From positions 62,001-126,000 of the forward strand of contig OZ237746.1 of assembly GCA_965178125.1 (NCBI GenBank): DNA of 64,000 nt. Direction: 5' to 3'. How positions within the stretch are numbered: position 1 is the first letter of the stretch; each line of letters opens with the position of its first letter. The notes below the pieces were generated by a model. The model did no database searches, was not told where the DNA came from, and was given only the letters and a program-made list of their open reading frames with translations. This DNA comes from Bilabrum cf. latius. Taxonomy: Eukaryota. A program made the translations under genes and the position numbers. Shown piece after piece: positions 10,272 through 52,042 of the stretch.

Positions 10272-11779
10272 ATGCACCGCTCTCTGCGTTATGGCGTTGC
10301 GCGTAGCCTTACACGATAGGTTTCTCGAGCGGTGAGATTGGATATTCATTGTCGTGCGCCTATGGGCGGCGGCAAAGACAACTCATCGGGTTGCCACGTC
10401 TTTCGTCTGCTGAGAATGATCGCCTATTATCACTAGCTTGTTGCTAAACCGCAGTTTTCCTCGGGAGCTTTGCAACCCAACGTAAGATTTCGCACAGCTC
10501 GGCATCGCATGCGGTTTTTTATCCTGCTGCGTAACATAGCTTGGCATCGCATCAACTGCAACTCATTCCGCTCATGTCGCAGGATGCCGTGATTGTGTCT
10601 GGAGCTCGCACTCCAATCGCTAGCATTTAGGGAGCACTGGCTGGGGTCAAGGCACCAAAGCTTGGTTCCACTGCGATCGAGGGTGCACTGAAGCGCGCCG
10701 CTGGCGGAGACGCCGACAAGCAGGCTGCCCTGGCGCAGGCCGTGGACGAGGTATTCATGGGCAACGTGATCTCCGCGGGGCTGGGGCAGGCACCTGCCAA
10801 GCAGGCAGCCCTGGGTGCCGGCCTGGGGACGAACGTTCCTTGCACGACCGTGAACAAGGTGTGCGCCAGCGGGCTGAAGGCCGCCATGTTCGCCGCTCAG
10901 CAGGCGGCCCTTGGCCACGGGGAGGTCTTCGTGGCGGGGGGCATGGAGTCCATGACCAACGCGCCGTACCTGCTGCCTGGCGCGCGGGCCGGCATGCGGT
11001 TCGGTCACGGCGTGGTGGAAGACGGGCTGCAGAAGGACGGGCTGTGGTGCGTGTACAACGACAAGGCCATGGGCTCCTTCGGCGACAAGTGCGCCACTGA
11101 GCACGGCTTCAGCAGGGAGGACCAGGATGCGTTCGCTCTGCGGTCGTACAACCTCTCCCAGGCTTCGGTGGAGGAGGGAAGGTTCGCCGACGAGATCGAG
11201 CCCGTGATGGTGCCCCAGCGGCGGGGTGACCCCCAGGCGGTGGACAGGGACGAGGAGATGTTCAGGGTGAAGAAAGACAAGATCCCCGCCCTGAGACCGG
11301 CCTTCGAGAAGAACGGGACGGTCACCGCCGCAAACGCCTCCACGCTCAACGACGGAGCCGCTGCACTGATCATCACGTCAGCGGCCAAGGCCGAGGCACT
11401 CGGGCTCACCCCACTGGCCCGCATCAGGGGATACGCCGATGCTGCCCAGGCCCCCGCCGACTTCACCACGGCCCCCGCGCTGGCGGTGCCCATCGCCCTG
11501 CGGCGGGCCGGCTTGGAGGTGAGCGACGTGGACTACCACGAGATCAACGAGGCCTTCGCGGTTGTCCCCCTTGCCAACGCCAAGATCCTGGGGCTGGACC
11601 AGGACAGGATCAACGTGAACGGCGGGGCGGTGAGCATGGGGCACCCCATCGGCGCCTCGGGGGCCCGCATCCTGGTGACTCTCCTCTCCGTGCTGCAGCA
11701 GAGGGACGCGTCCATCGGGTGCGCTTCCATCTGCAACGGGGGCGGGGGCGCGGGTGCCATGGTCATCGAGCGGCTGTGA
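10272..11779 (+). CDS. ACAT1: Mitochondrial acetyl-CoA acetyltransferase (thiolase)
   Basis: Exons 10272-10331, 10455-10481 and 10583-11779. Arg/Ser-rich transit-like N-terminus. Motifs VCASGLKA, NEAF, GHPIGASG and CNGGGG. TAG at 10317 and 10628 (RTPIASI*GAL vs usual RTPIGSFQG). TGA stop. Confidence 0.95.
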
Positions 11780-30100: not shown

Positions 30101-32533
30101 CCAGCCGTGTCTGGTCCATTGAGCTGACCCGATCTACCACCACCATAGCTTGCAGGCAGCCTATCAGCCGAGGCCCCAGCAGTCACGCCAACCCCTGTCC
30201 CTTGGGTATCGCCGCACCTGTCTCCATCTCCCTCCTCCGGTGCAATCACCATCGCACGGGCCATGGAGAGATAGTTCCCTGCGATCCCATCCCCTCTCAG
30301 CGACCTGCACGCAGACCAGCAGCACCCCGCTAGCCCGCCCCCAGAGGAGCCCCCACCTCCTCTCTCACCTCCTCTGCGCTCTTCGTGTACCAAGGGGTCA
30401 CGCAGGCGTCCACCCCCCTGCCCTTCGGCAGGCCCTGTGCCCCCACACCCCTACCCAGGGGCACACGGCATGGGCATCCTGCAGCAGCAGCACGGATACG
30501 GCTCCACCGCGGGGAGGAGAGCCTCGGCCGTGGCTGCAGCGGTCGATGGGAGGCCGGGCAAGGAGCCGGCCATTGCTTGCCACTGCCCCTGCGGCTCTGC
30601 CCTCGCACGGACGATTGCCGGGTCCACGGGTGCAGGGTACTGCAACGCCTGCTCTCCCGTGGAGGGGGGCACGTAGGGAGTCCCCTGCAGCAGCAACACG
30701 CTCCTGCCGAGCGATCTTCGCCTGGCGTCCTCACTCGTCACACCTGATACTCCCCGAGATCTCCCCTCGAAGACGGTACCCCCGATGGTACCCTCACAAG
30801 CCCCGGCCTTGTTCCCCGCGATTGCTCGCAGCAGGCTGGTCTTGCCACACCCCGAGGGACCAGTCACCAGCAACACCTCACCCTACCCCAGCTCAACGGA
30901 CACATTCTGACACAGAAGCTTCCCGCCTGCCTTGACGCTGACACCGGTCATACTCAGGGCAGCGGCAGCCTTCCTGCCTCCCAGCGGGCCCCCCGCCCCC
31001 AATTGATCCCCTGCATCCTCGGCCCCCCTCTCCTCCCCCAGGAGCCCCGCACGCTCACCTTCACCTTGACCTTCACCGACACCTGAGTCCAACCCCCCCC
31101 CTAGATCACTCCCATGGCCCGCACTCGTCACATCCAACACGGCCCTCACCCTCACGGCCGCGCCCAGCGTCGGACCCAGCCCCAGCAAGAGCCCAGGCAG
31201 GGCGCACAGTGCCCCGATCAGGTAGGCGGCGCCGGCGGCGGCAGAGGCCACGTCAGCGGCACTGGCTGTACACGGAGCATCGTCTGCACCGCCATGCAGT
31301 GCCTGTGACCGCACCAGTCCCCTCAAGGCTCCGGCACAAGCAAGCCCCCCCTACTCGCCCCCCATCGACCCCACCCCCATCCCCCCGCTCCCCTCCCCCG
31401 AGCATGAGACGAACATGCCCCCGTGCTGCACCCCCAGCGCGATGCACGCATAGCACAGCACCCACGGATAGGACGCCTGCAACCCGCTCCACGTGCCGCT
31501 CGCCACCATCCAAGAGGCCAGCTCCATGCGGCGGGCAGCCACCCGGCCCGCGAGCCCCTCGAGCCGTGAGCCCAGGGAGGGCCCCAGCCCAGCCAGCACC
31601 ACCTCCTCCGCCTGACGAGTGGCCCTGTCCCACGCAAACCGGAACTGTCCCATGGCCCGGTCGGCGGCCGCGGAGAGGGAGGCCACGGGGGAGAGCAGCA
31701 GCCAGGCCACCGAGGCGCTGGCCGTTGCGAATGCAAGGGCGATGCCCACCGTGCGCGCCCCACCCACCCCTTGTGCCACGTACTGCAGGCTTATCCCCGC
31801 TGAGACGAGCGTGGACACGATCCCACCCTGGGACGTGTTGGAGGAAAAGAGGCGCTGGGCGAGCAACCGGCAGAAATCGTCCAGGTCCGATGTGGCGCGC
31901 TGGTCGAAGTCAGGGGCTGTTGCGGGTACTTTAGAGTCCATGCTATCGATCGTCGTTTTTGATTGTGCTCTGGCAAAGCCTGCCTGGTCATATATGCCGC
32001 GGTGGAGCTTTATCGCCAATGCACCCCGCATGCGCCAGCGAAGGCGCTCCCCCTGCAGTTGGCAAAGAGATGATTGGCTTACAACAAACTAACTAAAACG
32101 AAACAAGCGAGTAGATTGAGCGCTGTGTATGCATATTAGTGTCCATTGTCCTCACTGTCGTCGCCGCACCTTGCAGCAACACTGCAACGCAGCAATACAG
32201 CAACAGAGCGGCAATCACGTCGCCCCTGGCCCCTTCCCAGTCCTCATCATACAGTTTTCCGACAATGGCCGCCGATACAATGGTCGTGTGGAAAGATGCT
32301 AACGATCTGCAATGTAAGGGTACGGCACAACATGTCTTGGAGTGCCTCAAGGCCACATGCCAACAGAGAAGCTGTCCTCGCGGGACTCACGATAAGACCT
32401 AGCTGGCCAAGTTCACAAAAAGGTCGACATAAGATGCTCCTGGTTCGAGACAAAACGACGCAACCAGCAAATTCCAAGCCGCTGGCAGTGCGAAGCGTGG
32501 AGAAACGGTAGCTGTCCTCTTCTCATACTCCAT
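27139..32533 (-). CDS. Full-size (TMD-NBD-TMD-NBD) ABCD-type peroxisomal-like transporter, divergent
   Basis: Two NBDs with Walker A GPSGCGKTS and GRNGAGKTT, signature LSAGELQR, Walker B LLLADEA and H-loops. DQRATSD/DQRAAQD motifs in the TMDs. Two 5' introns; the remainder is one frame via TAG read-through, ending at TGA 27139. Confidence 0.8.
27232..29989. repeat. Pair of 103-bp near-identical direct repeats (27232-27334 and 29887-29989) in the two NBDs
   Basis: Direct comparison shows one mismatch. The repeat encodes DWHSQLSAGELQRVAVARLLLRxPPPRLLLADEA. Confidence 0.9.
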
Positions 32534-32857
32534 GTCGGCCAGCCCAACTTCCTGTTTTTTAACCTTAAGAGTCTATGCGACAAAATGCTGCAGTACTATT
32601 TATCTTGCACCTGTACAGTCCATATGTAGGTCCTCTGCACTATTACAGTGCAATGCATCCAAGTGGTTCCGCTCGGCATGATGCGCGGTGCCAGTCAGGC
32701 TTCTACTGCAGTTCGGCAACATCAGACCCTTCCACGCTACCTTGCGAGCACCGCCCGCTGGCTCAAAACGAACAGCGGAACGTGATAGCAACGAATATCG
32801 GAGTATATTGTCCAGCTCCTGCGTTTTGTTGGTTGCTGAAGCCGGGTTGATTGTGCA

Positions 32858-35800
32858 ATGCACGCCGGCTTGCGTCATGACCTCGACAGCCTGGTTCGAA
32901 AGGCGACAGTGGGGTACGGGGCCTGGTTGCTTGCGATAGCAACAGCAATAACCGCAATATACACATTTGCTATTGACCTCAGCGCATAGTCTGTCGGGTC
33001 TGAGGCTGCTTGGCGATCTGACAGAGCACACCAGCTCGATTTCAAGGTACCATCGTCAGCTCTTTCTGAAAGTGGACGGGAGCCGACTGGAAGCACCAAT
33101 GCGGCCAATGAGGCAATCAGTACTGCCTAGGTAGGCCTAGGAACTCTAGCAAGCTTCGTCTTTGCGATGAGTGTGCTTGGATTTGCTGCTGTGAGTTGTA
33201 TGCTAGGTCTCGAGTGGAGCAGGCACAGTTCTTTCTATGATTGCAGCTCACAGGCAAGGTGGGGCAGGCATTCGCTGATGACACTGCTATTATGGCTTGT
33301 TATGGTTGCTATCACAAGCGAAACGTATTTCTTTTACGTGCCGCTGCACCCTGGAGGCGGCATCTTCGGCAAAGGCCCTATAATGTTAGCCATGGGCGGA
33401 ATGCACAACTACCTTGGTATCGCCGGACGAATGATCAGGTCGCTACTGTTGGGAAACTAGTGGACGGTAAACGATATAACCGCATTTGAGCAGGCCCGCG
33501 TCGCGGCTCTGGGCCAGCCCTGGGCTAGCTCTGTGGTTGTGGTACTCACTGTCGTGGCCTCGATTATCATCGGGTCCACCACGGCGCCGCGCCCACAAGT
33601 GGAATTCAGGCTTAAGGCTGCTCGGGCAACTTGGATCGTGTCGGGGGCTCTCTGCGGCGGTCTCACGTTCACTCTTGCCGCGGGCTGCATGGGCCTGTCG
33701 CTGATCGGGGTCACGCAGAGCGTGCTCACACACGGGATGGAAGGGCTGCAGGACCTGGGGAACACGCTGGGGGTGGCAGGAGAGAACGCAAGCGTGTCTC
33801 AATTTGGTCCCGATGTGAATATCACCGGTCTGCTGCAGGCCAGCGTCGCTGGAGAGGACGGCGTGCCTTTGATCTTCCCTGCCCTGGTGCAGCTTGCGAC
33901 CAACGAGGGGCAAGCAGGTAAGCTGGAGGCCCTGGGCATGCGGGCAGGGCAAGAAGGGGTTCTGCGGGCTGCCCAGGCCTGGAGCCAGTTGGATGCAAGC
34001 GTGTCAGAGAGCGAGGCAATCGAGCTGCTGGCCCCGCAGGTGAACGACGTGACCACCTCCCAGCTGAACAGCGGGTGCCTCGTGTGGACGGCAAGGGCAG
34101 AAGCGCTCGCAGCTCACGCGGCTGTGTCTGCCCTGCGAAACCAAGCAGCAAGAGGGCCGCTACCGCTGCAGCTCTCCAACGGATTCTTCTCCATTGACCC
34201 CTCGAGAGACACAGCCAACGCCGCTGTCCCTATGCTGCCCGAGCAGCGAGCAGCGCCCGCCGCCTTTGTGCTGTTCCTGCTGATTTGCACCGTGACTACA
34301 ACCGTGTTTGCCATTTCGCTGGTTTTGACCCCCAGCAGGGGGCTGGACGAGGCCACCAGGGCAGCGGCGCAGGAGCTGAGGTCAATGGCAGGCAGGGATG
34401 GACAAGGGAATGAAGGTGGAGAGAATGATGGTGACGTGTGCTGTTCTTACCGGTGTATGCACGAGGCAACGATCGATGCTGAAGTAGCATGCGCGAGGTG
34501 GATTACCCCTGCTTGCGGGTGCTTTTAGCGCTTGTGCTGCTGGTGCGAGTGCTGCCGCTGCTGCTGCTCCATGGGTCTGCCTCGATGCTGCCACCCGGCA
34601 CTCAAGCCCGTCTTTGTGCCAGCTCGCCGCATCAAAAACAGGCGTAGAAACAAAGCCATCGCTAGCAGGGGCGATGAGTAGCATGCAGGCAGCAACCGTG
34701 ACAGGCAGGAGGAAACGGTCCGTGTGAACACCAGGCGGTGGGGCAGGGTAGGCACAACGGAGCTGAGGGTGGCGGCTTGCATGCACGAGACACTTGTCAC
34801 AGTCAGGCACTCCCTGGACCTGTGTGGGACAGACCAGGATGAAGGGCAGACGGTGGGCCACAGTGCAGCAGACAGGGCAGCTGCCGCTCGCCGCCCCTCG
34901 TCGCTCCTGGTCCGCAGCAGCCTGGCGAGGGCGCGCATGCTCGGGGCCTCTCTCAAGTTCATATCCGTGCTGCTGCTGATGGAGCTCTTTCTTGGACCAT
35001 TCACCCTAAGCCTGCTGCGGCATAGGTCCATGCGCATGTGCTAGTGTGCGACAGCGAGGGTGGAGGGGCTTGGGCCTAGCCTGGGACAGTGCGAAGACAG
35101 CGTGGCGGGTCGACCGTTGGCCGAACTTTTGGGGCCTGTCGCAATCGAGTACGTGTAGGACAGCACGGCTGTAAAGATTGTCATTCGGCTAATCCAGACA
35201 GTGCTGCGAGTGCTGCTGGTTGCTAGCATCTACGTGTATGCCAGATAGTCCAAGGAGATGGAGCAGGCCGTGGAGGTCTCGGAGAGGCAGAAAGCCGCGC
35301 TGCAGTCGAGGGTGCGGTTCCTGTCGCACGAGTGCAGGGTGCCTCTGAACTCGGTGGTGCTGGGTCTAGATTTCTGCCAGGAGGGAGCCAGCGCGACCAA
35401 GGGAGCGCTTGGGAGGCTGCACGTAGCAAGGGTGCAGTCGGACCGACTCCGACAAGCGCTTATTTAGGACTTGGATAGCGCAAGTGATGGCGTTCAGGTG
35501 AAACAGGGCTCCAGAGATCTCCGCAGGAGGCATTAGATTGCCGCCAAACAGCTGGCCTTGGACTTGGGAGAGACAACGGAGGCACTCGAGGAGGCTGTGG
35601 GTCTCTTCGATGACACGCTGCCCTCGCTCGAGGCAGCCACAGAGGCAATGCAGACCACCCTCAACGACGTGCTCGCCCTGCAGCACATCGAGTCTGGCCG
35701 CTTGCAGATCACCATGCGCCTGGCTCCCATCTTGCCTAGTATTCTAAATGAGACGAAGAAAACCTTCTTGGCCCAGGCAGAGGGAATGGGTGTCTCACTA

Positions 35801-38629
35801 GAAACGTGCAACAGGCACCCGGCCTCTGGCAAGAGCTTCGAATGCGACCCTCCGCGCATCCGAGGTGCCGTGTACAACTTCGTATCTAATGCGCTCAAGT
35901 GGTCCAGGCCTGACGAGGTGCTGGTCAAGCGGCTCCGGGATAGGGGATAGGACGTTGCTGAGGGTAGGGGCAGGGGAACACGAGACGACAGGCCCAGAGT
36001 AGTTGTGGGCTCAGCCGAGCGTCCTCCTCACCTATGGGGGGCAAGTCAGTGGCGGGAGGCCTGGTCCAAGATGGGGCCAGAGGCGTGCAGTCGGCTGCAC
36101 CGCATTGTGACGGGCCAGTATGGAGGGAAGAGAAGGAGGCCCCACCACGCCGACAGCAGGGCGAATATGGTCGAGGATATGGCGTCGAGAGACGCCTCTG
36201 GGTCAAGCCTGGCCGAGGATCGGGCGGCACCGCACACCCCAGGTCCCATCAGCGCTGGTCCCATCAGCGCTGGTGCCCTCAGCTTGTCCCAGCACGGGTC
36301 CCTACCGTCCATCGGCACAATGTTCCCCGAGAAGGGCGAGGGCGATGGAACTGCTGCATCCACGCCGGGCTGTAGTCCTCGGGTACGAAGCTCAAGGCGC
36401 AGTGTCAAGGGGCGAGGCAGCACTGGAGGCAGTGGCAGTGGCAGCGGCAGCGGAAACGAGAGCAGAAGCAGCAGCAACAGCCGCAGCAACAGCAGCGCAA
36501 TCGATGAGCACGAGTGGGCAAGCGGAAACACACCTGACTCGTAGAGCGGCACGGGTGACTCGTGGGCGGTCAGCGATGGGGAGGACCCAGACATGCTGGC
36601 AGCGGCAGAGGCAGCTGCTGCGGTGAGGAGGGGGGCGTGTGGGCCACTGTCCCAGATGCTGGAGGAAGAGGAGGACGAGGAATCGCTCGGGCGAAGACAG
36701 CCCACCGCCATCGGCATGTGGAGGCACAGCCGCGATGCAGCCAAAAGCACGCAGCGCGAAGAATGTGACCAGCTGCCCACCGAGGCCCAGATTGCCCCCG
36801 ATACTGTGGAGGTGTACGACGAGCTGCTGCGAGGAGTGGAAGAGGTATCAGCTGGAGATGATGCAGGAGTGCTTGTGCATGGGAAGGAGGGATCGGCGAC
36901 CAGCGGGATCGCGTGGGAGGAGAGCGCGTGGGCCGCCGGGGGAAATCGCGGTGGGGAAGGCGGGGTCGAGGGAAAGAGCGGTCTGTCCTCTGGCAGGTCT
37001 TCCAGCGGAGACAATGATGCTTCTAGCGCCACGAGTGTCAGAACCAGCTCTGATCAGGTCATGCCGGTGTGCATGTGGGTGTACGACGAGGGCCCTGGGA
37101 TCCAGAGGAGGGACTGGAGGCAGGTCTTCACCCCCTTCGAGACGCTGCACTCGGGCATCCTCACGGCGGAGGGGCAGGGGTCAGGACTGGGGCTGGCCAT
37201 CACCGCGACGGTGATGAAGATGCACGGGGGGTGTGTGGGCTTCAGCTCCATGCCTGGTGTGGGTAGTGTATTCTTCCTTTGGACCAAGATGCGCGTTGCA
37301 GGCGGCAGCACTGGCGTCAGCAGCCGCAGTCACAGTCAGAGCCACAGCCTGCCTGTGTCAGTCTGCGATGTCAACGACATCTTGGGGGGCACTGAAGCGG
37401 CCACCATCCAGCTGCCACCCCGGGCCATAGCCCCTGGACTGAGTCTCAGCCGACGGTCGAGCGGGAGCGACGCTGCGGGCGGCGGGCTTGGTCTGTGCCC
37501 GGGCCCAGTCAAGGAGGTTGAGGATGAAGACGAAGATGAAGATGAAGATGAGGAGGATGGAGATGGGGTAGCTGGTGTGGAGCAGGAGACGGTTCTGCCA
37601 TTCGAATCAGGCAGCGACAACCAAGAGGTCAGCACCAAAGCCGGCAGCAAAGTGCGAACGACCGGTCCGGTGCAGTCTGCAGGGTGGCGGCAGCAGGCAA
37701 ACACCGCCGGTACTCGGGGGGACAACAACTGGGCAAGGGCCGGTGTATCTACGGCCAGCGCGATGACACCTCTGCACCGTGGCAAGGGGAGTGGCAGCAG
37801 TGCGAATTGGGTGTCGGGAGGTGTCATTGCGCGGGAACAGGAAGAAGATGAGGAGGACCAAGGGGGTGCCGAGGTGGACACGAGCCAGCTGCAGGAGTCA
37901 CACCTTGCACAAGCAGACCCAAGGGCACCATCGTAGCGGTCGGAAGGCCAGCATAGTCTGGATGTCTCAAATTCAGGACCAGCACCGGCAGGGGAAGGGG
38001 CACCGGCACCGGCTGGGGCAGGGATGTTACCTGCAAGCGAGGGTGGTGGCAAGCGCAAGCAGCGCCGCGTAGTCAAGAAGAAGAGAACGAAGCGTAAAGA
38101 GGCAGAGAAGAAGCCTGAAGCAGCCGCCGGCAAGCCCTTGGGCTCAGGGTCGCAAGCAGCCGACCGCGCTAGGACAAGCGAGCCCGCTGACTCGCAGCCA
38201 CAGGGCAAGGTGGTGCTCGTGGTGGACGACAGCCGCACCAACAGGCTCTTCCTATCACGCATGGTGCGATCTGCGGATCGATCCGTTCAGGTGCTGCAGG
38301 CCAGTGATGGGCAGGAGGGGCTGGATGTGCTCAAGCAGAGAGCCCAGCAGATGGGAGATCAGGACCATGGGCTAGCCGCCGACCTGGTGCTGCTGGACTT
38401 CTCCATGCCTCGCATGTCCGGGCCCGAGATGGCGCGGGCCGTGCGCGAGGACAGCGACAGCCGTATCCGCGGGGTGCCGATCGTGGGTGTGACGGGCAAC
38501 GCGCTGCCCGAGGACCAGGCGTTGTTCCGGGAATGCGGGGCGCAGGACGTGCTGCTGAAACCGGTGCGGCGGGTGCAGGTTGGAAAGGCACTAGGCAGGA
38601 TGGATGAGTTGCGGGCCGCACTGGCCTGA
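32858..38629 (+). CDS. Multi-TM hybrid sensor histidine kinase (HisKA, HATPase, receiver), ~1920 aa
   Basis: H-box FLSHECRVPLNSV, N-box NFVSNALKW, G1 DEGPGI, F-box VFTPF, G2 GSGLGLAI. Receiver VLVVDD...LLDFSMPRMSG...VTGN...LLKP. Eight ORF-track pieces lie in one frame separated only by TAG, ending at TGA. Start at ATG 32858 is inferred. Confidence 0.88.
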
Positions 38630-38735: not shown

Positions 38736-41700
38736 ATGTCAAGTGCAAGCGGGGCAAGTTCCCCATCTTCTGATGTCCCTTGGGACGCTAGCATGGTGGC
38801 TTTGGTAAGCAACCGGTGCTGGCCCGACACTTTCGCCGTGCGACCTGTGCTGCCCATCCGTTTATCGCAATTTCCTCGGCGGACCCCTCCACTGCGCAGT
38901 GTGCCGCAATCGGGGTTAAACGATCCCATTTAGAACGCTAGCGAGAGCAAGTTCGATCCATTGCGTGCTTCCAGGTGCCCGCGCTCCGCTGCCATTCGGT
39001 CGACTACTTTCGCCAAGTTGAGGATGTGGAGTGCGTGCAGTGCAGGCACATGAGATCAATTCATCTTCCCTCGCTTGTCGTTCTGCGAATTTTAAATCTG
39101 AACGAATGCGGTCTCGAATCTATGGCCGGCGTAGCTGCCCTCCCTTCGCTGGAGCGGCTGTACCTGGACGGCAACAAGATTCGTCGGGTAGAGGGGCTGG
39201 CCAGGCTGCGCCGTCTGCGGACGCTCTGGCTGAACGACAACCGGATCGAGAGCTTGGCTGGAATCCATGGCACCGCCGCAAGCGAGAGCCTCGAGACGCT
39301 GTGGGTGGCCCGCAACCGCGTGCACTCGCTGGGTTGCTCGCTCGAGGGCTGCTCCCGTCTGCAGGAGCTAAACCTGGCCGACAACTCCATTGGGCACTTC
39401 GGAGAACTGGCTACCCTCGCCCGGCTGCCCTCTCTGAGGAGCCTTGCGCTGGAGGACCCCCACTTCGGGGGCAACCCCCTGTGCGCGCTCTGCAACTACA
39501 CCCCCCTTGCCCTCCACCAGCTGAGGGGGGTCCAGGCCCTTGATTCCATACGGCTCAGCGAGGAGCAGAAGGCGGGCGCAGAGGCGACTTTCTTGAAGAA
39601 GCGCATGTACTACAACATGAGGATCCGCACCATCCACAGGAACACTTCCAACGTTCTCAGGCGGGCGGCATCGGCTCTGGGGGCCCGCATCGGGGAGATT
39701 CGCACGGGGGCGAGGCAGCTGCTCATGGGATGGAGGGACCTGCTTGCGGGCATGTCGGCGGCGAGGGGCCTGCTGGAGGCAGGGGACGAGGGGCTGGCCA
39801 AAGAGGCAAAGAGGCAGGAACCCAGGCTGAGGAGCATGCTCCGATCGATCGAGGACTGCGTGAGGCATCGGCTCGCGGCGGAGGTCAGGCTCCGGTCCGG
39901 GCTGGATTCCCTGCGATCCACGCTGCGGAGCGTGTCTCAGCTGCATGTGAGGAGGTTGGTGCTGGAGCTGGAGACCGGAGGCAACATCCGACTGGAGGAC
40001 GGGAGGCGGGGGGAGCTGTGGCACGACTCTTGCGTTGACCTGGTGCGGTCGAGGTTCCACTCGAAGGACTTCCAGGCCGTCGGGATCAAGGGGGTGCGGG
40101 TCAGGAGGGTGACCCGCATCCACAACAGGTACCTGCGGGCCAGGTTCGAGAGGAGGAAGGCCGCCATCATCGGGGCCGATCCGGAGCTGGCGCAGGAACT
40201 GGGGGCTGCGGGGACACAGGGCGGGGCGGGGGCGTCTGCGGCAGGGACCAGGAAGGGTGGGGGAGTGGGAGGTAAGGAGGGGCAGGGCAGGGCCGCCGCG
40301 GATGCGGCGCGGCGCCGCGCGCTGGAGTACCTGTTCTACGTTCCGCAGTGGTCCAGGGAACAAGCGGACCGGGAGCCCTGGCGCGCCGTGGAGGAAATCC
40401 AGCGGATCGCCGAGCACGGGTTCAGCGTCCCACAGCACGCGCAGGCGGCAGCGCCAGTCCCGCCGCCCTACTCTGCCCCCGCCACGAGGCTCCCGCCGCC
40501 TACGTTCGCCCACCCCCGGAAGCGGTTCGGGAAGGCAGCTCAGCAGCCCACGCCCGCCCAGCGCCTTGCGGCCGAGACCACGGGTCCGTGGGAGTACCCG
40601 GCCGCGCCCGGCGTGCTGTTCTCCAACTCGCTGTCTGCCCTGGAGCTGCCTCGAGTGGCGGAGGCAACGGCCCGCACACTGGAGCAGCACCGGGGCCCAC
40701 TGCTGGAGGGGCTGGGCTCCGAGGTGAAGCAGTGGAGGAGACAGGGGGACAGGGGCAGAATCGGATCATCGTCGTCCCCATCATCACCACCACCGTCCTC
40801 TTCGTTCCAGGCGTCTTCCGGGCATGCGGCAGCTGCATTTGGCGTGCCTGCAAGCGTGGCTCAGGTGGCTGCGGCTGCCTTGCGAGACCTCCAGCAGCAG
40901 CAGCAGCAGCGGCATGGAAATGAACCGGGGGAAGATTCAAAGGAATCGGAGCTGAAACCCAGGCCTGCCGCGTCCGGTGCCGGCAGTCTCGACGGCAGCT
41001 CCTCTGCCCCTGCCCCTGCATTTCCCGATGCCAGCGATGCAGCCACCGGGCTAGACGGGCTTGCCGCCCTGCACGCCTCTGCCTCGGACAGAGTGGCCTC
41101 CTGCCTGGAAGGAGCCATTGCCACTGGGAGCGCCGGGAGGGAGCGAGCGGGCTGGAGCGCCACCGGCATGCTGCAGGCCACCGGCATCGAGAGCTCCGGG
41201 GGGCCCCTGTCCATGGGTGGCGCGGGGATGGCTTCGTTCACGAGGCTGGCTGTGAGAGAGAAAGTGGCGAATGAGACGGCCGCTGCCGCTGCGGCGAGTG
41301 GGCAGGGGAACGGGTCCAGGCACGGTGCCTCTGGGAGTATGTCTCTTGACTCGTCTGCCGGCGCTCTGCTGGGCGAGACGGGGCCTCGCCTCACGAGGGC
41401 GGGCTGCTCCGAGGGTGTGCTGCTGATCTCCAAGGTGTTTCTGGGGCATTGCATGGGGGCTGAGGAGGCCTGGGAGCTGCACCACGGGGACGAGGACGAG
41501 GGGGACGAGGACGATGATGCCGATCAGGAGGACTCGCAGTAGCAGCAGCAGGGGGCGTTTGGAGGCAGGAGTCCGGTCTCCTCCGGAGCAGCGAGCCCAT
41601 ATTACAGGAGCTCACCGGCTGCCTCCAGAGCAAGCACGCCCGCTGGCCCCAGCCCAAAGGAGAGAAAGAGGCAGCAGCGCAGGCGACCGGTGCACAGCGT

Positions 41701-44700
41701 GGTGTCGGCACGTGGAGACGATCCCAAGCAGCGGCAGTGGTGCGTGCTGGATCCCAACACGGTACTGCCAGAGTACATCGTTGAGTTCGAATACTTGTAC
41801 GAGCCGTCTGCCGAGGCTATTCGGGCGGGGATCGCCAGTGGGACAGCGATGGGCGCGGGTGCGTCGGTTGCCTCGCAGGGAGCTGGCAGGACCAGTCCCC
41901 ACGATGCGGGGGGGCTGTCAGTGGTGGGCCGCACCAGCGCCGCCTCCCAGGCATCTGCCAGCGCCAGGCACTCGCCCACGGGCAGTGCGGGGGGCAGTCT
42001 CGGGGGTAGGAGCAGCCGGACTGGAGGCGGCGCGGGAGAGGGGGAGGACGGAGACGGCCAATACATCGCTCCTGTGGGGAGCGGGGGCTCCAGCGTGGTG
42101 GCTGAGCTGGAGGCACTGGCCTAGATCGCGCTGGGTGGGATTGGAGGAGGTGGTGGAAGTGGGGGGGCTATAGGGGGGGGCGAGGAGGAGGGCGGGGATG
42201 GTCGAGGGGGGCCGCCCGCCGTGCACCTGGCACCCCAGGAGGAAGCGGATCTGCGGCCTCTGGCCCGTCCTCTGGCCCGTTTCGTGAGAGATTGCTTGGG
42301 ACTGGGGGCGTACTTCGCAGGGCCCGGGGAACAAGAGGCGTAGGACGCGGTGGCTAGAGTGGCGGACGATCTGCCCACCCGACCCACCCCGAGGGAGTGC
42401 CTGGCGCTGGCCGTGCAGGTGGCAGGCGACGGTGGTGGTGTGACGAGCGCGATTGGCGGCGGCGGTCCCGACGGGCTGCAGATGGTGTCGTCCCCCGCGG
42501 GTCCCGCCGCCAGCCTGCACTCGTCATCCCACGCAGCCCTGCTGTCCCTGCCGGAGCCCTCATCCGGCCCCCAGGCCAGCCGGGCCCTCCGTGGACTCGC
42601 CGCCCTGTCCCTGGCATTCTGTTCCCTGCAGTCGCTGGACACCATCGCGCCTCTGCTGTCGATGCTCGAGAGCATCCGGTTGCTTGACCTCACGGGCAAC
42701 GCGATCTGCGAGCTGACGAGTGGGGAGCATGAGCAGGAGGATAGCCAGGACGGCACTGGGGCAGGTGCGGCATCATCCTCCTCCTCCTCCTCTCCCGACA
42801 CCTGTCCCCTGGCCGCAGTGGGAGACACGCTGGAGGTGCTGCTGCTCACTGACAACCGCATCGCTGGGCTGGAGGACCTGCCTGCCTTGCACAGGGCAGT
42901 GCCTGGGCTCCGGTCGCTGTGCCTGCGGTACAACCCGGTGGCGCAGGCGCAGGTGACAGAGGAGACCGCGGCAGCGGGGTCAACAGAGCCCGACACTGCC
43001 GTTGGATTCGACACGGGCGGCGGTGGTGGTGCTTCCAGCAGTGGCAGCGGCCTGGATGCAAGCGAGATCGGCGAGCCGGGCATTCAGGCCGTGCTGTCGC
43101 TGATGCACGCAGGGAGGGCGGGGGCGGCGGTGCCCGACGAAATGCGGCTCCTCGCACCCAATCCCGCCGAGGGGCCCACAGGTGGGGGTCTCCCGCGAGG
43201 CAGTGCGGTGCACCTTGTGCCTGGCAGCGGCGCGGTGGGCGGCAGGTACCGCCGGGAGGTGCTCCGCGCTGTTCCCTCGCTGACCCACATCGACGGGGTG
43301 TTGTTGCTGCCCAGGGAGAGACAGGCGGCGGTGGGGGCGCCCACGAGCGTGTCCAGGGCACTGGCGGCCTCCAGGGCGGTCGATGCGGTGGGGAGGCCAG
43401 CCTACGAGACCAATGCGAGGGGAGGGGAGGGTGCGGTGGAAGATGGGGAGAGGGAGGGGGAGGTGACGGAGATGGGGGCCGTCACTGGCGCACCGTCCTA
43501 GGCCCGAGGTCCTTCTGGTTTAGCCACCATGGTGCAGGTGGGCAAACCCGACACCCTGGATCTCAGCCGGCTGGGCCTGCGCACGCTCCTCGGGGACGGC
43601 TTGCGATCCGTGGGCGGTCTCCGCGTGCTGGACGTGTCTTGGAACGAGCTGACCGGGCTGGAGGGTGTGGGTCACATGAGCCAGCTGGAGGAGCTGAGGG
43701 CCGAGGGGAACAGCCTGTCCAACGGGAGCCCAGAAGGGGCAGCTCCAGCGGGTGATGGGACCACGGGCGCCGCTTCTTCAAGCACCAGCACCAGCACCAG
43801 CCTGGTCTCCCTGCGTCCCCTGGCCCCTTCACTGCTCCGGCTAGACCTGGGCCGCAACCGACTCTCTTCTTTCGAGGGGCTGCAGGGACTAACCCGGCTG
43901 CAGCAGCTGAGTCTCGAGGACAACGGGATCACTCGGCTGGACGGGCTGAGCCGGCTGCAGCACCTCATGGAGTTGTACCTGGGGAACAACAAGGTGCGAC
44001 CGCTCAAGGAGGTGCTCCGTCTCAGGGAATTGCCGCGGGTCATCATCCTGGACCTCAGCGGCAACCCGCTGGCGCTGCAGGGCAAATACAGGCTGTTCAC
44101 GGTGTACCACATGAGGAGGCTCAAGGTGCTAGACGGGGCCTCCATCTCCAGCAGGGAACAGCAGGAGGCCAGGGAACAGTACAGTGGGAAGCTGACCCTC
44201 GATTTCCTGGAGGACAGGCTGCAGGGCCGCAGATTCGACTCCATCCGGGAGCTCGACCTGAGCGCGGGCCGGATCAAGGACATGGAGCTGCTGCCGGGGA
44301 ACAAGTTCTGCAACCTCGAGGTGGTGGACCTCAGGAACAACAGCCTCACGGGACACGGGGTCAAGGGCCTCCGGGCCCTCCCCAAGCTGAGGGTGCTGCG
44401 CCTGGGCTCCAACAAGGTGCACTCGGTGGTGGCCGCGGTGACGGCGCCGGCGCCGAGGAGTGATGCAGCGGCGGGAAATGGCGAGGGGGCTGGGGCTGGG
44501 GCAGCGACGGGGACTGGCAAGCCCTACTCGCCGTTTCCTTCCCTCAGGGAGCTGGATCTGTCCCAGAACGCGGTCGCGGACGTGGGTGCTGTGGGGCTGC
44601 AGCACCTGCCGGGTGTGACGAGCGTGGATCTCAGCGGCAACGACATCACCAAGCTGCAAGGGGGGCTCAGGGGCTGCGGGCACCTGCGGTCTCTGTCGCT

Positions 44701-45595
44701 GAGCAAGAACAGGATCCGGGTCGTCGAGCTGTCCGACATGCAGGCGCTGACGGGGCTGACGTCGCTGCGGCTGGCGGAGAACGGGATCAAGCAGCTCGGC
44801 GGGCTGACCTGCCTGCAGCCGCTGCAGCTGCTGGACCTCTCGGGCAACCGGGTGCACGACATGTTCGAGATAGAGAAGCTGGCCGCACTGCCCTTCCTCG
44901 CCGATCTGAGGATGCAGGGCAACCCGGTGTGCAGGCGGCAGCTGTACAGGCTGGGCGTGCTCCGTCACCTAGACCTCCTCGCCAGGCTGGACGGGCAGCC
45001 TGCCACTGACGAGGAGAAGCAGAGGGCCGCCGCCATGTTCGACGGGGGCGGGGGCGGGGGCGGGGGCGTTGTCGAGGACGGGGGGGGCAGGAGGACCCCA
45101 GGAGGGGGAGTGACGTACTACGGTGGACCAGGGGGTGGTGCTGTGACGAGTGCGAGGTCTGGTTCCCCCGGGATGGGGGTGCTGGGGGTGGCGGGGTCCT
45201 CGGCCGGGGGGGGCCCGGGTTCCAGGGGTCGTGTGACGGCCGTGACCCTGGGCGCGCTGTCGGTGATGGGGTCGGGGCGTGGGGGGCGGGGGATGGTGGG
45301 GAGGGGGGGAACAGGTCTGGTCGCGGGTCTGGTGCCCAGTCGGGGCGGTGGATCAGGTGTGCTGGGCGGGGGGTTCGGAGTGGGGGGGGGTGAGGCGGGG
45401 GTGCTGGCCGCGAGGGGCTCCCGCAGGCGCGGGGGCGCTGGGAGCGGTGCCTCCGGGCGGTCCGTGAGCGGAGGACTGGTGGGAGGGGCTGCCCCGGGGA
45501 CCAGGGGGTCTGCAAGTGGAGCACACGGCCACGGGTCACGGAGGTCTCCGCGGGCAGTACGCTACGGCAGCTCGTCAGCTTCGTTCCGCGGCTGA
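38736..45595 (+). CDS. LRRC9: Leucine-rich repeat protein, LRRC9-like (cilia-associated)
   Basis: Several SDS22-like LRR blocks with LRRcap motifs (GNPLC, GNPVCRRQLYR...LDG). LRRC9-type segments KKRMYYNMRI, ELETGGNIRLEDG and WHDSCVDLVRSRF. Intron 38805-38899, TAG read-throughs, TGA stop. Confidence 0.8.
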
Positions 45596-45943
45596 CGGAT
45601 CCAAAATTTGGATTCCAAATTCCACAATTTCAAATCCTTGCAAGCACTTTATTGACCGAACGAACAGGACTATGAGAAATCATGTCTAGAAAACTACACA
45701 GCAACGATCGGAGAGAAGGAGGGAATGTCACGTTGCCCATGGACGGAATGAGAGCGCCCGAGGGAGGGAGCGCCCCAGCCCACAGAAGGGGAGATAGTGG
45801 GGAGCACGAGGCCACCCCAGGATAAGGTAAAAGCCCGCGGCCAGACGAGTCATCCCTGCCGCACGAGCCGCCAGACAGGCGGCAACATCCTGATCCGGAT
45901 TGGCCAGCACGGCCATGCTCAGCCCTAAGTGGAGTCATCCTTC

Positions 45944-48900
45944 TCACATCGGCAGGTCGCGCCGGCGGGAACCGCTGCGCCCGCTCCTCCGGCTCCTACG
46001 GCCGGAGCTGGAGTACCCGCCCGCCTCACTGTCCTCGTCATCCTTGCCCCCGAAGGCAGCCCCCATCCCGCCCACGCTGGAGCCCCGCCCCATCCCGTCC
46101 CCTCGGCGGCTCTTGCTCCTCCGGCTCCTGCGGCCGCTCCTGCCGCCCCCTTCTCCTCCCCCGGTCATCCCCAGCTGCGAGCCTTCCCTCCTCACCCCAC
46201 CCCCTCCCCCTCCCTCCAGGTCGATGTCACGCGGATCCACTGCCCCCCTGCCAGGGGGCACGACACCCGGGGAGCTCCCCCCCAGTGCCCCCACGAGCCC
46301 CTGTGCGCTGCTCCTGCGGCCCCTGCCACCACCACCCATGGAGCCCCTACGGCCCCGGGACCGAGGCCTGCCCTAGGCCACGGCACCGGCCGCCTCCTCC
46401 TCCTCCTCCTCGTCATCGCCCATGCCCTGATCATAGAACAGCGCGTTGCTCAGGTTGATCAGCCCGCTGTCCTCCCGCCGCACCCGCGCCTCCCCGTACC
46501 CCACGTCCAGCACGCTCGCCACGTCGTCGTCACGGTGGTCTCCCCGGTGGCCCCGGCCGCCCCTCAGCTGCGAGGCGGCGTGGGCCTCGAGGGCGGCCCG
46601 GCGAGAGAGCAGCGCAGCCGCGCGCTGCTTGGCCGTGGCCTGCGCGGCGGTCGCAACCACCCGGCAGGCGTTCTTCTTGGACTGCTCCGCCTCCCTGCGG
46701 GTGCCCTTCGCGTCTGCCAGGCGGTCCACCAGCGCCCCCAGGTACTCCGGGTTCGCGGGGTGCCTGAGGAACACGCGGCAGCCCAGCTCGGCCATCTCAC
46801 GACGGCTCATGTGCGCGGAGGTCTTGGGGCCCGCGGAGCCGTCGGCGGGTGCCGCACCAGCCGCAGAGGCGGTCCGCCCGCGCAGCTCCCTGGGCAGCTT
46901 GAGGCGGTACCCGACCACGTACAGGGGCCCGAACAGCCGGCGAGTGCGCATGGCCGGGCTGTCCACGGCACCGTCGTCGCTCTCCTCCCCCTCCTCCTCG
47001 TCACTGGAGGGCTCCTCCGAGTCCTCATCGCTGGCATCGGCTCCGGATCCGTCCAGGGACACGGACTCGGCCCTCCCCGATGGCTTCCACCCGGCGGGCT
47101 TGGCCTTGCCCTTGGCTCCCTCCTGCCCGTCAAAGCCCCTCTGCGCCTGCGCGGCGCTGTAGACGAGCAGCCCCGCGGCCTTCGCGTCCCCTTTGGCCAT
47201 CGAGGTGACCCTCCGCACCTCCTCGCCGTTCACCATCACGGCCGCGTACTGCTTGGTCCTGCCCTTGGCCGCCACGAACCTGAAGTCCTTTGCCCGGAAC
47301 AGGAAGTCCGCCTGCACCTCCACGCCATTGCCCTCCGCGTTCACCCTCTCGAGAGCGTCCTCCATCATGCGCTGCCTCACCGGATCCGGCTCCACGATGA
47401 GCACCCTGACCCTGAGCCTCCGGGCGTCCCTCTGCAGGTGCTCCATGGCACGCTGCACCACGCCCAGCAAGGCGCTCTCGTCCATGGCCACGTCCGCCTG
47501 GCTGGTGGCGCCCAGGGCAGCGGCCAGGGCGGGATCCGCGGGTCCGTCGGTGAGGGCGAGGGGGTCGGCGACGGCTCCTCCACCCCCGATGCGGGGGGCA
47601 GAGGCGCCGTGGTTCCGCCCGGAGGCTGACGCGGCGGAGGAGGGGACGGGCTGCGCGTTGCCTGCCTCGTCCGCCTGCCGCTTGATGTCCGAATCGTCCA
47701 GTGCCTCCTCGGCTGCCTCCGCTGCAGCCTTGGCCTTGGCGGCTGCGCGGGCGGCCTTCTTTGAGCTCTTGTTGCCCTCGGCGGTGATGTCCAGGGACGC
47801 GATGCCGTGCTTGCGCTGGGGAACCAGGCGCCAGCGGACCCACCACGCCACGAAGGACTGCACGTTCTTGGAGACCTGCGTGTGCGGCGGGGTGGTGCAG
47901 GCGCAGGTGCAGGGGCAGGTGCAGGTATGATACGGGACTCGTGAATTTGCTTGCTACCGTGCTAAAACTTTGGACTTGTCGATATGTGTCGCCGTATTGG
48001 ATTACCAGTCGGCAGTAGGCGATGCGGCAATGCCGGCCTGCCGCAACAAGTATCTCCGACGGCCCAAATCGCAGCGACCGTGCCCGTTGGCTGCCAGTGC
48101 AGCAGACTCCCGCGGCAGTCGCATCGCGCGAAGTATTTGTAATACGCCATCAAAGAAGCACGAGTACTCACGATGTCCAAGATAGCGTGCAGGATGATGG
48201 ACGAGGATATGTCGATGACGCCGAAACCTTCGGGGCCGAGCAGCCACACCACTGCGACGACGATGCGGACGAAAGGGCGTGTAAACGGGATGCAGCAATG
48301 CTTACGGGCGAATCCAACGCTAGTGCACGGTCCATTTAGTTTGTATTTCTACGATCTCGCCGTGCTCGGCGCCACTCACGAGGAAACATGGTCCAAGACG
48401 TGAAGAAAAGACCGAACAGCGTGTTGACTCCCTTGTGCGCAGCCTCGGGATATGACTGGATGCAGCGCCCCCACACATCGTACATGATGTAGAAAATACC
48501 AGCCCCAGCCATGAGCCCGAGCAGGAACAGTACGACCTTGGCGGGTCCCTGCGGGATAGAGGATCCGGTCTTTAACGAGCCAGCAATGCTTCGGAGATGC
48601 GAGCCACGATTCAGGCACCAATCTGAGACTCACGCCGTAAATGATAGCTCCAACACCAAACACAATCATGAGCTGGTCAAGGATCAGCAGAGTCAGCGTG
48701 TCGGTTGGCTTCTTGAGCTTGCGGCTCAGCGGCATGTTGGAGAGCAGGATCAGGAGCACTGGGCACGTGGCTAGCCAGCCGCCGTACCTCATGTAGTTGA
48801 ATGGCGTGCCATCGAGGTCAATCAGCGCGTTGCCTCCGAACACCAGCCCAATCAGGTACGTTGACGGCTCTGCGAAGGCGAGCGAGGACAAGCCGTGAGA

Positions 48901-49498
48901 AGCAGGACACGATGAGATAAATGATGGAGGGCCTTTGGTAGCCACCGCTTCGGACAGAAAACATCCTAGTTGAAAATACACTTGATGCAGCAGAGATCTC
49001 TGCCGCACGATCAGGTTTTCCGGAGCATGCCGCCTGTGAAGCAGCCATGATCGGCTGCGTTGTCACCGTGACACAAGGAAGTATTGCGGCGCCTCCGCGC
49101 GCACCAACAAGAAGAAATCACTCACCAACTGCCGCGACATATAGAACCTGCAAAGACGAGGGCGTGGCTCGCCATGCAGGCCGGTAGGGGTGCTTTTGGT
49201 GGGCAAGTGAAGCGAAACAGGCGTCGAGGTCCGTTGCAGCCCAGCGACTGAGCAGCTGGTGCCTCCGATCTGACTTCTTACCTCCCATCCGCATCGTTTC
49301 TGGGTTCTTTGGTAGTAGTAAAAGGCACACTGGCACAAACTGACGATAATGACGGTCGTGGCTGCGTGCATGGTGAGCCGAATTGTTGCAACAGACATCA
49401 ATGCTCGGACAGTCCAATCGGGCTATAGCAGAAGCAATGTATTGGTTCTCACACGCCCATGTCGAAAGCCCAAGCTCTACGTTAATAGTACTAGCCAT
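45944..49498 (-). CDS. Anion-channelrhodopsin (ACR)-type rhodopsin, 854 aa, with C-terminal degenerate receiver-like domain
   Basis: Seven phase-consistent GT-AG exons: 49498-49453, 49361-49282, 49147-49126, 48869-48634, 48548-48380, 48251-48172, 47875-45944. Motifs CGWEVLYVAAVE, RYGGWLATCPVLL, LDQLMIVFG, WTMFP, LGPEGFG and ILDIVSKN (retinal Lys). TAG=Gln at 46373-46375, TGA stop. Confidence 0.9.
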
Positions 49499-49660
49499 GT
49501 TCCTACCAAGCTGATTACTTTGAAGGTAATAAGGATGCCCTCGGTCGCAGCCTGCTCGTGGTCGCATGATTTGGCGCCGCGAGCAGTGGTTCCGTGCGGG
49601 AAAAGGAACGTTCCATGCTCCAATCAAGATTCGAAATGAAGTTTTGACAAATCGCGATCA

Positions 49661-52042
49661 ATGAGGTTTGCTCGGGTCCTGTAGGCAGTCAGAGTATTGC
49701 CAGCGCTTAGTGCGGCAGTCTTAGCTGGGAAAATGCAGTCCAGTGCTGTTGAAATGGCTACAGATTCGGAGAATTGTCCGGCCCTTGAATCGTATAGCGT
49801 TTCAGTCTCTAGACCGTACCGGCCCGTCAAACCACTGAATGCCTAGAACAAACTATCACTACGGCGATCGGTGGTGGTGTTCCGCCACGGCGACAGGTCT
49901 CCCATTTCGAACTAGGTGAACAATCATGTTGTGGTGGACCGCGAAGCCGAGCAAGAATGGGATGGCAAGCTGCCCAAATAGCGCGATATCCGAAAGCTGG
50001 CAGCCGCTTCGCCTGGTATGTATCCAAACGACGAAGCAAGCGACCGAACAGGTCGGGTGAGTCGGAAGAGCTGCTTGCTGTGTGCCAGCATTGGAGCGCT
50101 GACGTGCAATGTCCGATATCGAGGCTGCGCGTGTGTATATTGCCTGTGATCATGTTCTTCGAGCCGAAGAACCGTTGTTTTCTGTACAGAATCTGTTATT
50201 TCGCAGGAATGGCCGCGGGGCTAGCTGACCGCCCGCGGAGTGTCCCAGCTGAGGGAGCTCGGCACCGAGCTCAGGAGGTGGTACGTGGGCGGTGACTGCG
50301 CCTCGGCGTTCCGTGACCAGCCCGAAGCAGCAACTGCCGCTGCTGCTGCTCGTGGGTCGGGTGGCCTGCTTCCACGCACCCTCCCGTGCCAGGGAACAAC
50401 CCTCCGCACGGCGGCCCAGCCCCTGCCCCAGTCAGCGCCTTCCGTAGGCAGCGGCTCCAGCGAAGCGCCTGCACGCCCGTCACAGTCCGCAGCATCCGCC
50501 GATCCCCCCCCTGGCGGGCTGCTGCACCTCCGCTCCACTAACATAACGCGCACTGTGCAGTCCCTCCAGGCACTCCTGCAGGGATTGTACCCAGAGGGGG
50601 CCAGGGAGCAGCGATGCACGACGGGTGCACAAGAGGATGGCAGTGGGGGTGGAAGCACTGGCAGTAGCGCGATGGCCCAGACCCCGATCGAGGTGGCTCC
50701 CTTTGAGCAGGAGAGCGCTTTCAGGGCGGGAGGCAAGAAGTGCCCCGCACTGGCTGACCACCATGAGGCGCACATGGGCAGGGTGGTGCGGCACAGGCAC
50801 AGGCAGCGGGCCAGGGCCAGAGCCAGTGGCAGTGGCAAGCAGGGAACAGAGGCGCCCTCTTCCTCCTCTCGAAAGGAAGCGCGCAAGCACCCGCTGGCAT
50901 GGGAGGGGCCAGAGGGCAGGATCAGGAGGCAATTCGGGATACCAGAGGATACGCCCCTCCACTGGCTCCAGCTGCAAGAGCTGCTTACATGCTCGGCAGC
51001 ACATGGCATCCCGCTGAGGATGCCCGATTCAGGAAACAAACGGGGTGAGAGAGTCACGGAGCACGTGCCCTTGCAGCTGGTGCGGGATGTCCGAGCCAGG
51101 GTGGTGGCCGAGACGAGTCTCGAGATGCACGCCCCTGGCATCCTGAGGCTGGTGGTGGGGCCTCTGCTGGGCGAGCTGCTCGCGTGGGCCGGGGCCCGGC
51201 CCGCACCCGATGTGCCACCGGGGGTGCAGACCCCCGGCGGGCTGCTGGGGGCTCCCCACGGCCCCTCCCCTCTGACTGCCGACCTCTCCACTGGCCCGAG
51301 GCTGGTCCTGTACTCTGGGCACGACACCACCGTGCTGCCACTGGCGGCAGCTCTGGGGGCCAAGCTGGACGACTGGCCCGCGTATGCATCTTCCGTGGTG
51401 ATCGAGGTATACGAGCAGGAGCAGGAGCGGGAGCAGGAGGGAAGGGAAGCCCCGCGGGGGATGAGGTACGTTAGGGCGATGCTCAACGGACATGTGCTGC
51501 CGCTGCGGGACTGCTTGCTGGGCGAGTCGGAGCACAAGCGGAGGGTGCGTGCGGCAGTGCGGCAGGCGGTAGGGAGGCGAGGGAATGAGACTGCTGCTGG
51601 TGCTGGAGGAGTCGTAGGAGGAGGAGGAGGTGGTGGTGGTGGTGGTGGTGGTGGTGGTGGTGGTGGTGGGCCGTCCCGACTCGCTGGGACCGGTGGGCTG
51701 CTGGACCCTTGGCTCAGCGATCCGACCCTGGTGACTGTGGAGGAGCTTGGGCAGGCCTGGGAGGCACTGGTGCCCGGCGACTTGGGGCGGGAGTGCTGGA
51801 GCGGGGAGGCGGCCCAGTGGCTGCTGGCTAGCGGGGCGGGGGGGAGGGTGGCTCGTCGACTGGAGTCGGAAGCCAGGAGACTTGAGACTGAGATGCAGGG
51901 GGTTAGAGGAGAGAAACGGGTAGGAGACGAGAGCCTGGGCGAGAAGCTGGACATTGCAGGCTCCGAAGGCAAAAGGACGGTGGACGTGGCCGGGGGCAGC
52001 AGAGCGGCTGGAGACAAGGGTGTGGACGGATCCACTTTCTGA
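49661..52042 (+). CDS. Histidine acid phosphatase (ACP6/lysosomal acid phosphatase-like)
   Basis: RHGDRSP, G*LTARGVSQ (TAG at the conserved GQLT Gln, 50222-50224), RSTNITRT and YSGHDTT. Intron 50057-50206, TGA stop. Confidence 0.88.
51617..51670 (+). repeat. (GGA)n(GGT)n trinucleotide repeat encoding poly-Gly
   Basis: Directly visible within the phosphatase CDS. Confidence 0.9.

Follow-up and report, generated by a model that had tools for sequence, protein, structure and literature searches.

Evidence that UAG is read as glutamine in a Bilabrum channelrhodopsin gene with a receiver-like tail

We analysed 64,000 nucleotides of Bilabrum cf. latius DNA (the window; contig OZ237746.1, positions 62,001 to 126,000), and in it the minus-strand gene at 45944..49498. 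With a probability of about 0.85, this gene encodes an 854-aa B1ChR3, a light-gated anion channelrhodopsin (ACR) of the anoecid (bicosoecid) type from a heterotrophic stramenopile flagellate, with a receiver-like tail and with UAG read as glutamine. The channel is already known, and the combination of a rhodopsin with a receiver-like tail is of a known kind. The initial annotation of the stretch, made from the letters alone, had described an ACR-type protein fused to a pseudo-receiver domain, and missed a reassigned stop codon inside the gene. Published work is cited below for the parts of each source that were consulted.

Gene structure and identity of the protein

Six GT-AG introns, 85-296 nt long, divide the gene into seven exons. 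Its parts, with transmembrane segments numbered TM1 to TM7, are as follows.

49453..49498, minus: exon 1; ATG at 49498, joint 49361/49453 in runs X5 and X8, N-terminus as in published B1ChR3
49282..49361, minus: exon 2, TM1 to CGWE (Glu42); splice joints
49126..49147, minus: exon 3, 22 nt, start of TM2; splice joints on both sides
48634..48869, minus: exon 4, Glu50, TM3 with Gly80 and the TCP motif, TM4; splice joints, Pfam, structure matches
48380..48548, minus: exon 5, TM5-TM6; splice joints, Pfam
48172..48251, minus: exon 6, TM6-TM7 with Asp210; splice joints
45944..47875, minus: exon 7, Schiff-base Lys214 (47869-47867) and the entire cytoplasmic tail; TGA stop at 45946-45944
47150..47410, minus: receiver-like domain, first half (beta1-alpha1-beta2-alpha2-beta3-alpha3), Asn427 at the phospho-Asp site; AlphaFold, structure matches, atlas lead
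46700..46930, minus: putative second half of the same domain (beta4, low-complexity insert, alpha4-beta5-alpha5); motifs in relatives and paralogs, pLDDT <50
46373..46375, minus: in-frame TAG, codon 712, read as Gln; DNA, spliced contig, code tests
45947..46372, minus: C-terminal segment past the TAG, 142 aa, Gly/Arg/Ser-rich and basic, net charge +17; GC3 0.82, homologous and open in relative P0006

The splice model was checked against contigs of four public runs placed on window positions 45600-49700. None of the runs is recorded as RNA, and X5 and X8 were guessed to be RNA, yet the contigs of both (two study codes) have all six introns spliced out with 0 differing letters. Both introns adjoining the 22-nt exon 3 were seen as joints, with 20 letters on the short side. 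Since these two were removed along with the other four, the exon is real, and the seven-exon model of the initial annotation, short exon included, was confirmed. Exons 1 and 2 as a single exon, or as a frameshift, were ruled out by a 91-nt intron in the RNA-like contigs. Every motif previously named was found in its place: VAAVE spans exons 3 and 4, RYGGWLATCP occupies 48789-48760 and DIVSK spans exons 6 and 7 (Lys214), while in the tail RVLIVEPD starts at 47407, YAAVMVN at 47248, LYVVGY at 46924 and LGCRVFLRHP at 46786. The gene end at 45944 was likewise correct as the exon 7 TGA, though only if codon 712 is read as sense, because an in-frame TAG that had gone unmentioned lies 142 codons earlier.

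The rhodopsin part showed seven hydrophobic peaks, a Schiff-base Lys in TM7 and a TCP motif in TM3, as in channelrhodopsins. It matched Pfam Bac_rhodopsin (E = 4.6e-11 for exon 4 and 1.7e-06 for exon 5), and GtACR1 and CrChR chimeras were the first matches of exon 4 among solved structures. The protein is the published B1ChR3 of Bilabrum sp., with 229 of 232 residues of the rhodopsin part identical (counted by eye); it differs by three substitutions there, and the tail is near-identical over the portion compared, which excludes the published C-terminal 503 characters. In the supplement of PMC9733931, B1ChR3 is labelled among 'Bicosoecid ACRs' and grouped with the CarACRs, and its near-identity to B1ChR3 places the present protein with the anoecid ACRs. 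Neither a functional test of B1ChR3 nor a receiver domain is mentioned in the parts of PMC9733931 consulted. A green algal (prasinophyte) origin was rejected, as the rhodopsin matches were at the level of Bilabrum and no light-harvesting genes were found. The host is accordingly Bilabrum or a bicosoecid very close to it, in line with a mitochondrial tRNA that has a TCA anticodon, as expected for UGA=Trp in Cafeteria.

The receiver-like tail and ion selectivity

The tail carries its motifs in CheY-like order, with Asn427 at the Asp57 site, a Gly ending beta4 and a His before the Pro of beta5. The register was set by these motifs and the predicted strands, not by a significant alignment, and the sites of Asp57, Thr87 and Lys109 follow what we take to be the CheY residue spacing. 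The canonical phospho-acceptor set formed by these three residues is absent. Two low-complexity inserts split the domain, an acidic one separating the halves. An AlphaFold model built on a seven-sequence alignment had a mean predicted local distance difference test score (pLDDT) of 46.7, with values of about 60-80 for beta1-alpha3 and below 50 for the second half. Compared with receiver domains, the modelled first half gave Z scores of 5.0-5.6 and root-mean-square deviations of 2.4-4.2 over 61-79 residues. The top atlas set for the tail was PF00072 (0.91; 76% of members), with which it has 133 of 256 features in common; this serves as a lead only. Relatives of the tail were rare, three among 1.84 billion representatives. 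Two other homolog searches gave one match each, and all these relatives were metagenomic.

These data suggest that the tail is probably a split pseudo-receiver, as far as the model can carry that assignment. The pseudo-receiver of the initial annotation thus holds in its motif order and, by a weak match of the model, in its first half; the second half has no confident model. Several results weigh against a receiver. No receiver match for the tail was found in Pfam or among PDB sequences, and no Foldseek match for the tail model at E ≤ 0.001. The tail model of a paralog (pLDDT 44.8) had neither a receiver match nor an atlas match. The structural matches of the first half were tied with other alpha/beta folds, periplasmic binding proteins being best at Z 5.9 and every Z lying below 8. 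On such results the tail could have some other small alpha/beta fold, or be a degenerate leftover without a role. We consider this unlikely, as the order of strands and helices and the motifs fit a receiver, receivers make up over half of the 50 structural matches listed, and the atlas lead points the same way. In addition, paralogs at ~20% identity keep the FG-x-x-x-VV (beta4) and LGC (alpha4-beta5) elements, and a Labyrinthulea ACR listed in Data Set S1 of PMC8406140 has a similar first strand and helix.

Because equivalents of the phospho-Asp, Thr87 and Lys109 are absent, a split pseudo-receiver here would fairly likely serve constitutively in docking or trafficking, and not in a phosphorelay. 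Receiver tails without the Asp, with Asn57 and with altered Thr87 and Lys109, are described in 10.1101/2020.04.15.042127, where trafficking is proposed as their role. According to the same source, response-regulator-like tails occur on prasinophyte and viral ACRs, on green algal cation channelrhodopsins (CCRs) and on Labyrinthulea channelrhodopsins (ChRs). The novelty implied by the initial annotation therefore falls away, the architecture being already published. The present protein differs from those described there in clade and host, and in that two long low-complexity inserts split its domain, which is followed by ~250 more residues. A literature search combining channelrhodopsin, Cafeteria and receiver domain found no paper, and the occurrence of such tails in the anoecid ACR clade may be new to the literature, if a minor addition to it.

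For ion selectivity, residues were placed in the CrChR2 register through the CGWE and RY-x-x-W motifs, Glu42 being the presumed equivalent of Glu82 and Glu50 of the Glu90 site on the CrChR2 spacing that we assume. Gly80 occupies the site of Asp85 of bacteriorhodopsin (BR), and Asp210 that of BR Asp212. With Glu42 and Glu50 kept, and Val43, Gly57 and Gly61 in place of Glu83, Glu97 and Glu101, the protein shows the anoecid-ACR residue pattern. Its pore residues Glu42, Glu50, Gly80 and Asp210 agree by eye with those of Cafeteria CarACR1, to which it is ~47% identical (hand count); both have the Glu82/Glu90 pattern with Gly at the D85 site. The CrChR2 Asp156 site holds Asp here and Asn in CarACR1, and the CarACR listing gives rhodopsin domains alone. 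CarACR1-3 are listed in Data Set S1 of PMC8406140 as tested, with anion selectivity confirmed.

By analogy with these relatives, the assignment to the anion-channelrhodopsin type is supported, and is carried more by the clade than by the D85 residue. The initial annotation had taken a non-carboxylate at this position as the ACR hallmark; its class stands through B1ChR3 and the CarACRs, but the residue by itself is insufficient, since in PMC8406140 it is not the sole indicator of anion selectivity. In the proposed mechanism, modelled on the tested CarACRs, retinal on Lys214 would very probably isomerise in light and a passive chloride-type pore would open. Two points count against this. No current from this protein is on record in the literature consulted, and the same Glu pattern is found in cation-selective prasinophyte channelrhodopsins: Glu82 and Glu90 with a neutral D85 site also occur in the H+-selective CsCCR and MsCCR (PMC8406140). 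The protein could accordingly conduct protons or cations, or be a sensor that passes no current and signals through its tail. Either is improbable in view of its grouping with the CarACRs, all three of which are listed as anion selective, and of the four pore residues shared with CarACR1.

UAG in the nuclear code

The in-frame TAG of exon 7 (46375-46373) is codon 712, 142 codons upstream of the TGA. The protein is 854 aa long with UAG as sense and 711 aa under the standard code. The TAG is present in a spliced X5 contig (46215-47873, 0 other letters), and contigs of X1 and X6 also showed 0 other letters; an assembly error or an intron end was thereby ruled out. The frame past the TAG has a GC content at third positions (GC3) of 0.82, and its homologue in the metagenomic relative P0006 is an open C-terminus (55% identity over 374 columns). 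Neither P0006 nor a second metagenomic relative, P0129, is interrupted at the TAG sites, and both share the C-termini that follow.

The same behaviour was observed beyond this gene. In the window, long frames of coding-like composition continue through TAG, and positions with coding-like flanks on both sides (564 kb) comprised 58 TAG, 0 TAA and 6 TGA. All 20 internal stops in 28 dynein AAA_6 matches were TAG. A larger dynein set started from 19 heavy-chain loci; 3 were dropped by a composition filter, and the 16 that passed the frame filter comprised 52,837 codons. The motor-region frames of the 16 loci contained 165 TAG and no TAA or TGA. After a coding-like stretch followed by TAG, a TAA or TGA was met within 60 codons in 18/162 cases (11%), as after CAG (159/1630, 10%) or CAA (26/233, 11%). 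The corresponding values after TGA and TAA were 54/85 (64%) and 10/18 (56%). Frames read through TAG finished at TGA (9) or TAA (3) in 12 of 12 cases, which are not independent. UAA and UGA thus remain stops and UAG is not a regular stop, although rare termination at UAG may occur.

The residue was identified mainly from an alignment of dynein paralogs. At the 31 scorable TAG sites (134 of the 165 had too few aligned partners to be scored), Gln reached +60 bits, against -17 for Glu, -21 for Arg and -29 for Lys. Gln was found in 8 of the 10 conserved TAG columns, and 59 of 60 control sense codons were called correctly. TAG also stands opposite Gln in CBP and PA2G4 structures. A neighbour-residue test ranked Gln first for TAG, with weak controls (CAA ranked Gln third). 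BLAST among 145 random frames gave three informative TAG sites (Q, I, L). Flank matching of 78 TAG (A12, S10, E9, G8, Q7) was dominated by chance and failed for the CAA control too; its TPR-repeat sites were paired four times with Gln and three times with Glu. In the dynein set, TAG accounts for 165 of 2435 Gln codons (6.8%).

A single tRNA with a CUA anticodon was identified (G000:C23:907607-907679; L010:1501-1573, minus; 69.8 bits). It lies on a 1-Mb nuclear contig, on which a neighbouring frame also carries TAGs. Its acceptor stem is like that of tRNA-Tyr, with G73, and its D-arm is of the Gln(UUG)/Glu type. No UUA-anticodon tRNA pattern was found, and a second CUA-loop pattern, on contig C13, proved not to be a tRNA.

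Published Bilabrum sequences bear on the same question. In PMC9733931, B1ChR2 variants are described as having 'premature stop codons', and one transcript is marked /pseudo. Of two B1ChR2 alleles deposited with that work, one has TAG at a codon where the other, stop-free allele has CAG and reads Gln; the window copy of B1ChR2 has CAG at this codon. With UAG as Gln, the earlier 'broken' labels on some Bilabrum channel genes are explained. The term 'genetic code' is absent from the main text of PMC9733931 and, like 'UAG', from the four of its supplements searched. Data Set S1 of PMC8406140 and the supplements of PMC11473104, as far as consulted, hold no Bilabrum rows.

Not every result favoured Gln. 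TAG aligns with Leu69 of human and yeast eRF1, and of the 18 other tRNAs compared with the tRNA(CUA), tRNA-Tyr resembles it most (0.68), ahead of tRNA-Gln at 0.61 (CUG) and 0.58. In CBP, where 9 of 19 TAG sites were used, Glu (-5.1) scored slightly above Gln (-6.6) and 3 of the 9 columns were Glu-dominated. A five-site Pfam test, with hand-picked sites and 8 of 20 residues tried, put Gln just 2.1 bits ahead of Ser. UAG as Glu, as Tyr or as a Gln/Glu mixture would suit the CBP columns, the pairing with Glu at some repeat positions and the Tyr-like acceptor stem. All three are nonetheless very improbable: the larger dynein test separates Gln from Glu and leaves Tyr outside the top four, Tyr was second worst of the eight residues in the Pfam test, and the published B1ChR2 alleles exchange TAG for CAG. 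The nuclear code almost certainly reads UAG as Gln through one tRNA(CUA), with UAA and UGA as stops, and on this code the full-length protein would be made. That codon 712 is an ordinary or leaky stop, leaving a 711-aa protein and a 3' untranslated region or occasional read-through, has the default standard code and the premature stops of PMC9733931 on its side, but is scarcely credible beside the 165 dynein TAG without TAA or TGA, the likeness of TAG to CAG and CAA and not to TAA or TGA, the conservation in P0006 past the TAG and the cognate tRNA.

A possible mechanism is offered by the tRNA and by release factor eRF1 (L039:1380-1800, plus; G000:C35). The single tRNA(CUA), with a body nearest tRNA-Tyr, would be charged with Gln. 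eRF1 has TAVNIKS for TASNIKS, with Val replacing Ser, and its codon 69 is an in-frame TAG; it keeps GTS, Glu55, NIKS, Ser70 and YxCxxxF. In PMC5304391, eRF1 position 69 and GTS are linked to UAG recognition. The Val in TAVNIKS is a hypothetical reason why this eRF1 would no longer recognise UAG, and the UAG at codon 69, beside NIKS, could serve as a feedback brake.

UAG as Gln with UAA and UGA as stops (NCBI table 15 type) is known from Iotanema spirale, Hartmannula sinica, Trochilia petrani and Protocruzia tuzeti, a fornicate and ciliates (PMC11687900, PMC5304391). The lone UAG reassignment is the same here, but the host is a stramenopile with a GC-rich genome and use of the codon is low. A tRNA(CUA) was identified here, whereas none was found in two phyllopharyngean ciliates (PMC11687900); the eRF1 GTS is intact, unlike that of Iotanema (PMC5304391), and Val replaces Ser in TASNIKS. 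For the Cafeteria genome, the parts of 10.1101/751586 consulted mention a variant code for the mitochondrion alone, UGA=Trp. No UAG=Gln code in a stramenopile or bicosoecid, Bilabrum included, was found in the literature searched, which was covered by listings and abstracts, with most subscription papers and database notes outside its scope. On balance we lean towards the code change being so far unreported. We also lean, taking all its parts together, towards Bilabrum being the first case of a variant nuclear code among stramenopiles, unrecognised in print and arising via a Tyr-like, Gln-charged tRNA(CUA) and an eRF1 change, with intact B1ChR2 'pseudogene' alleles and, in addition to a K+ channel, four or more anoecid ACRs that carry receiver-like tails.

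Low TAG use and the TAG/CAG alleles suggest that the reassignment is young or weakly used. Few codes give UAG and UAA different meanings (PMC11687900), and a large contiguous assembly with both tRNA(CUA) and eRF1 makes the mechanism of reassignment testable. Annotation under the standard code fragments the genes of this organism, and a potassium-channelrhodopsin allele has already been mislabelled a pseudogene.

Related rhodopsins and neighbouring genes

The window holds a potassium-channelrhodopsin gene (~24079-26700, minus), ~20 kb from the ACR gene. The exon tested is identical to BlChR2/B1ChR2 (PDB 8JXO) at 164 of 167 residues, and in the TM3 motif a Ser of the published allele is replaced by Ala. 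The anion and potassium channels would presumably act together in photobehaviour; a heterotroph with both kinds of light-gated channel may serve as a model of plastid-free photobehaviour. Three further anoecid-type channelrhodopsins were found, two of them head to head on contig C18 (G000:C18, L005, minus, ~7430-4036; L006, plus, ~900-3123) and one on C1 (G000:C1, L007, minus, ~6100-1). In the C1 copy the tail runs to ~1700 aa; its receiver-like motifs lie far apart, and it contains several TAGs. These ACR paralogs are on offer for optogenetic screening. A pair of paralogous rhodopsins that are not channels, and whose long tails resemble degenerate histidine-kinase domains by eye, lies on C13 (G000:C13, L076:4455-7433, plus; L077:2684-5932, minus), and more rhodopsins occur on C28 and C8.

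Around the ACR gene, the window encodes the following.

32840-38629, plus: membrane-bound hybrid histidine kinase, ~7 kb from the ACR gene, a 1929-codon frame with 13 TAG; split HATPase (Pfam), C-terminal receiver canonical-looking by eye
38774-45595, plus: leucine-rich repeat protein, 2273 codons across 6 TAG, tail to tail with the ACR gene and ending 350 nt from its stop
50225-52042, plus: histidine acid phosphatase
10535-11779, plus: thiolase, with a TAG near the N-terminus
27142-32151, minus: ABC transporter
2885-7927, minus: repeat protein, FG-GAP-like by eye, 19 TAG in frame

Two 18S genes were present in the assembly: a tandem copy of 1700 nt on the contig that includes the window (G000:C12 rDNA array, L122) and a 1802-nt copy on a small contig (G000:C95:6099-7900, L121), the latter probably from a second eukaryote. 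A mitochondrial-like contig (G000:C111, 38.4 kb; L058-L061) carries a tRNA with a TCA anticodon, consistent with UGA=Trp.

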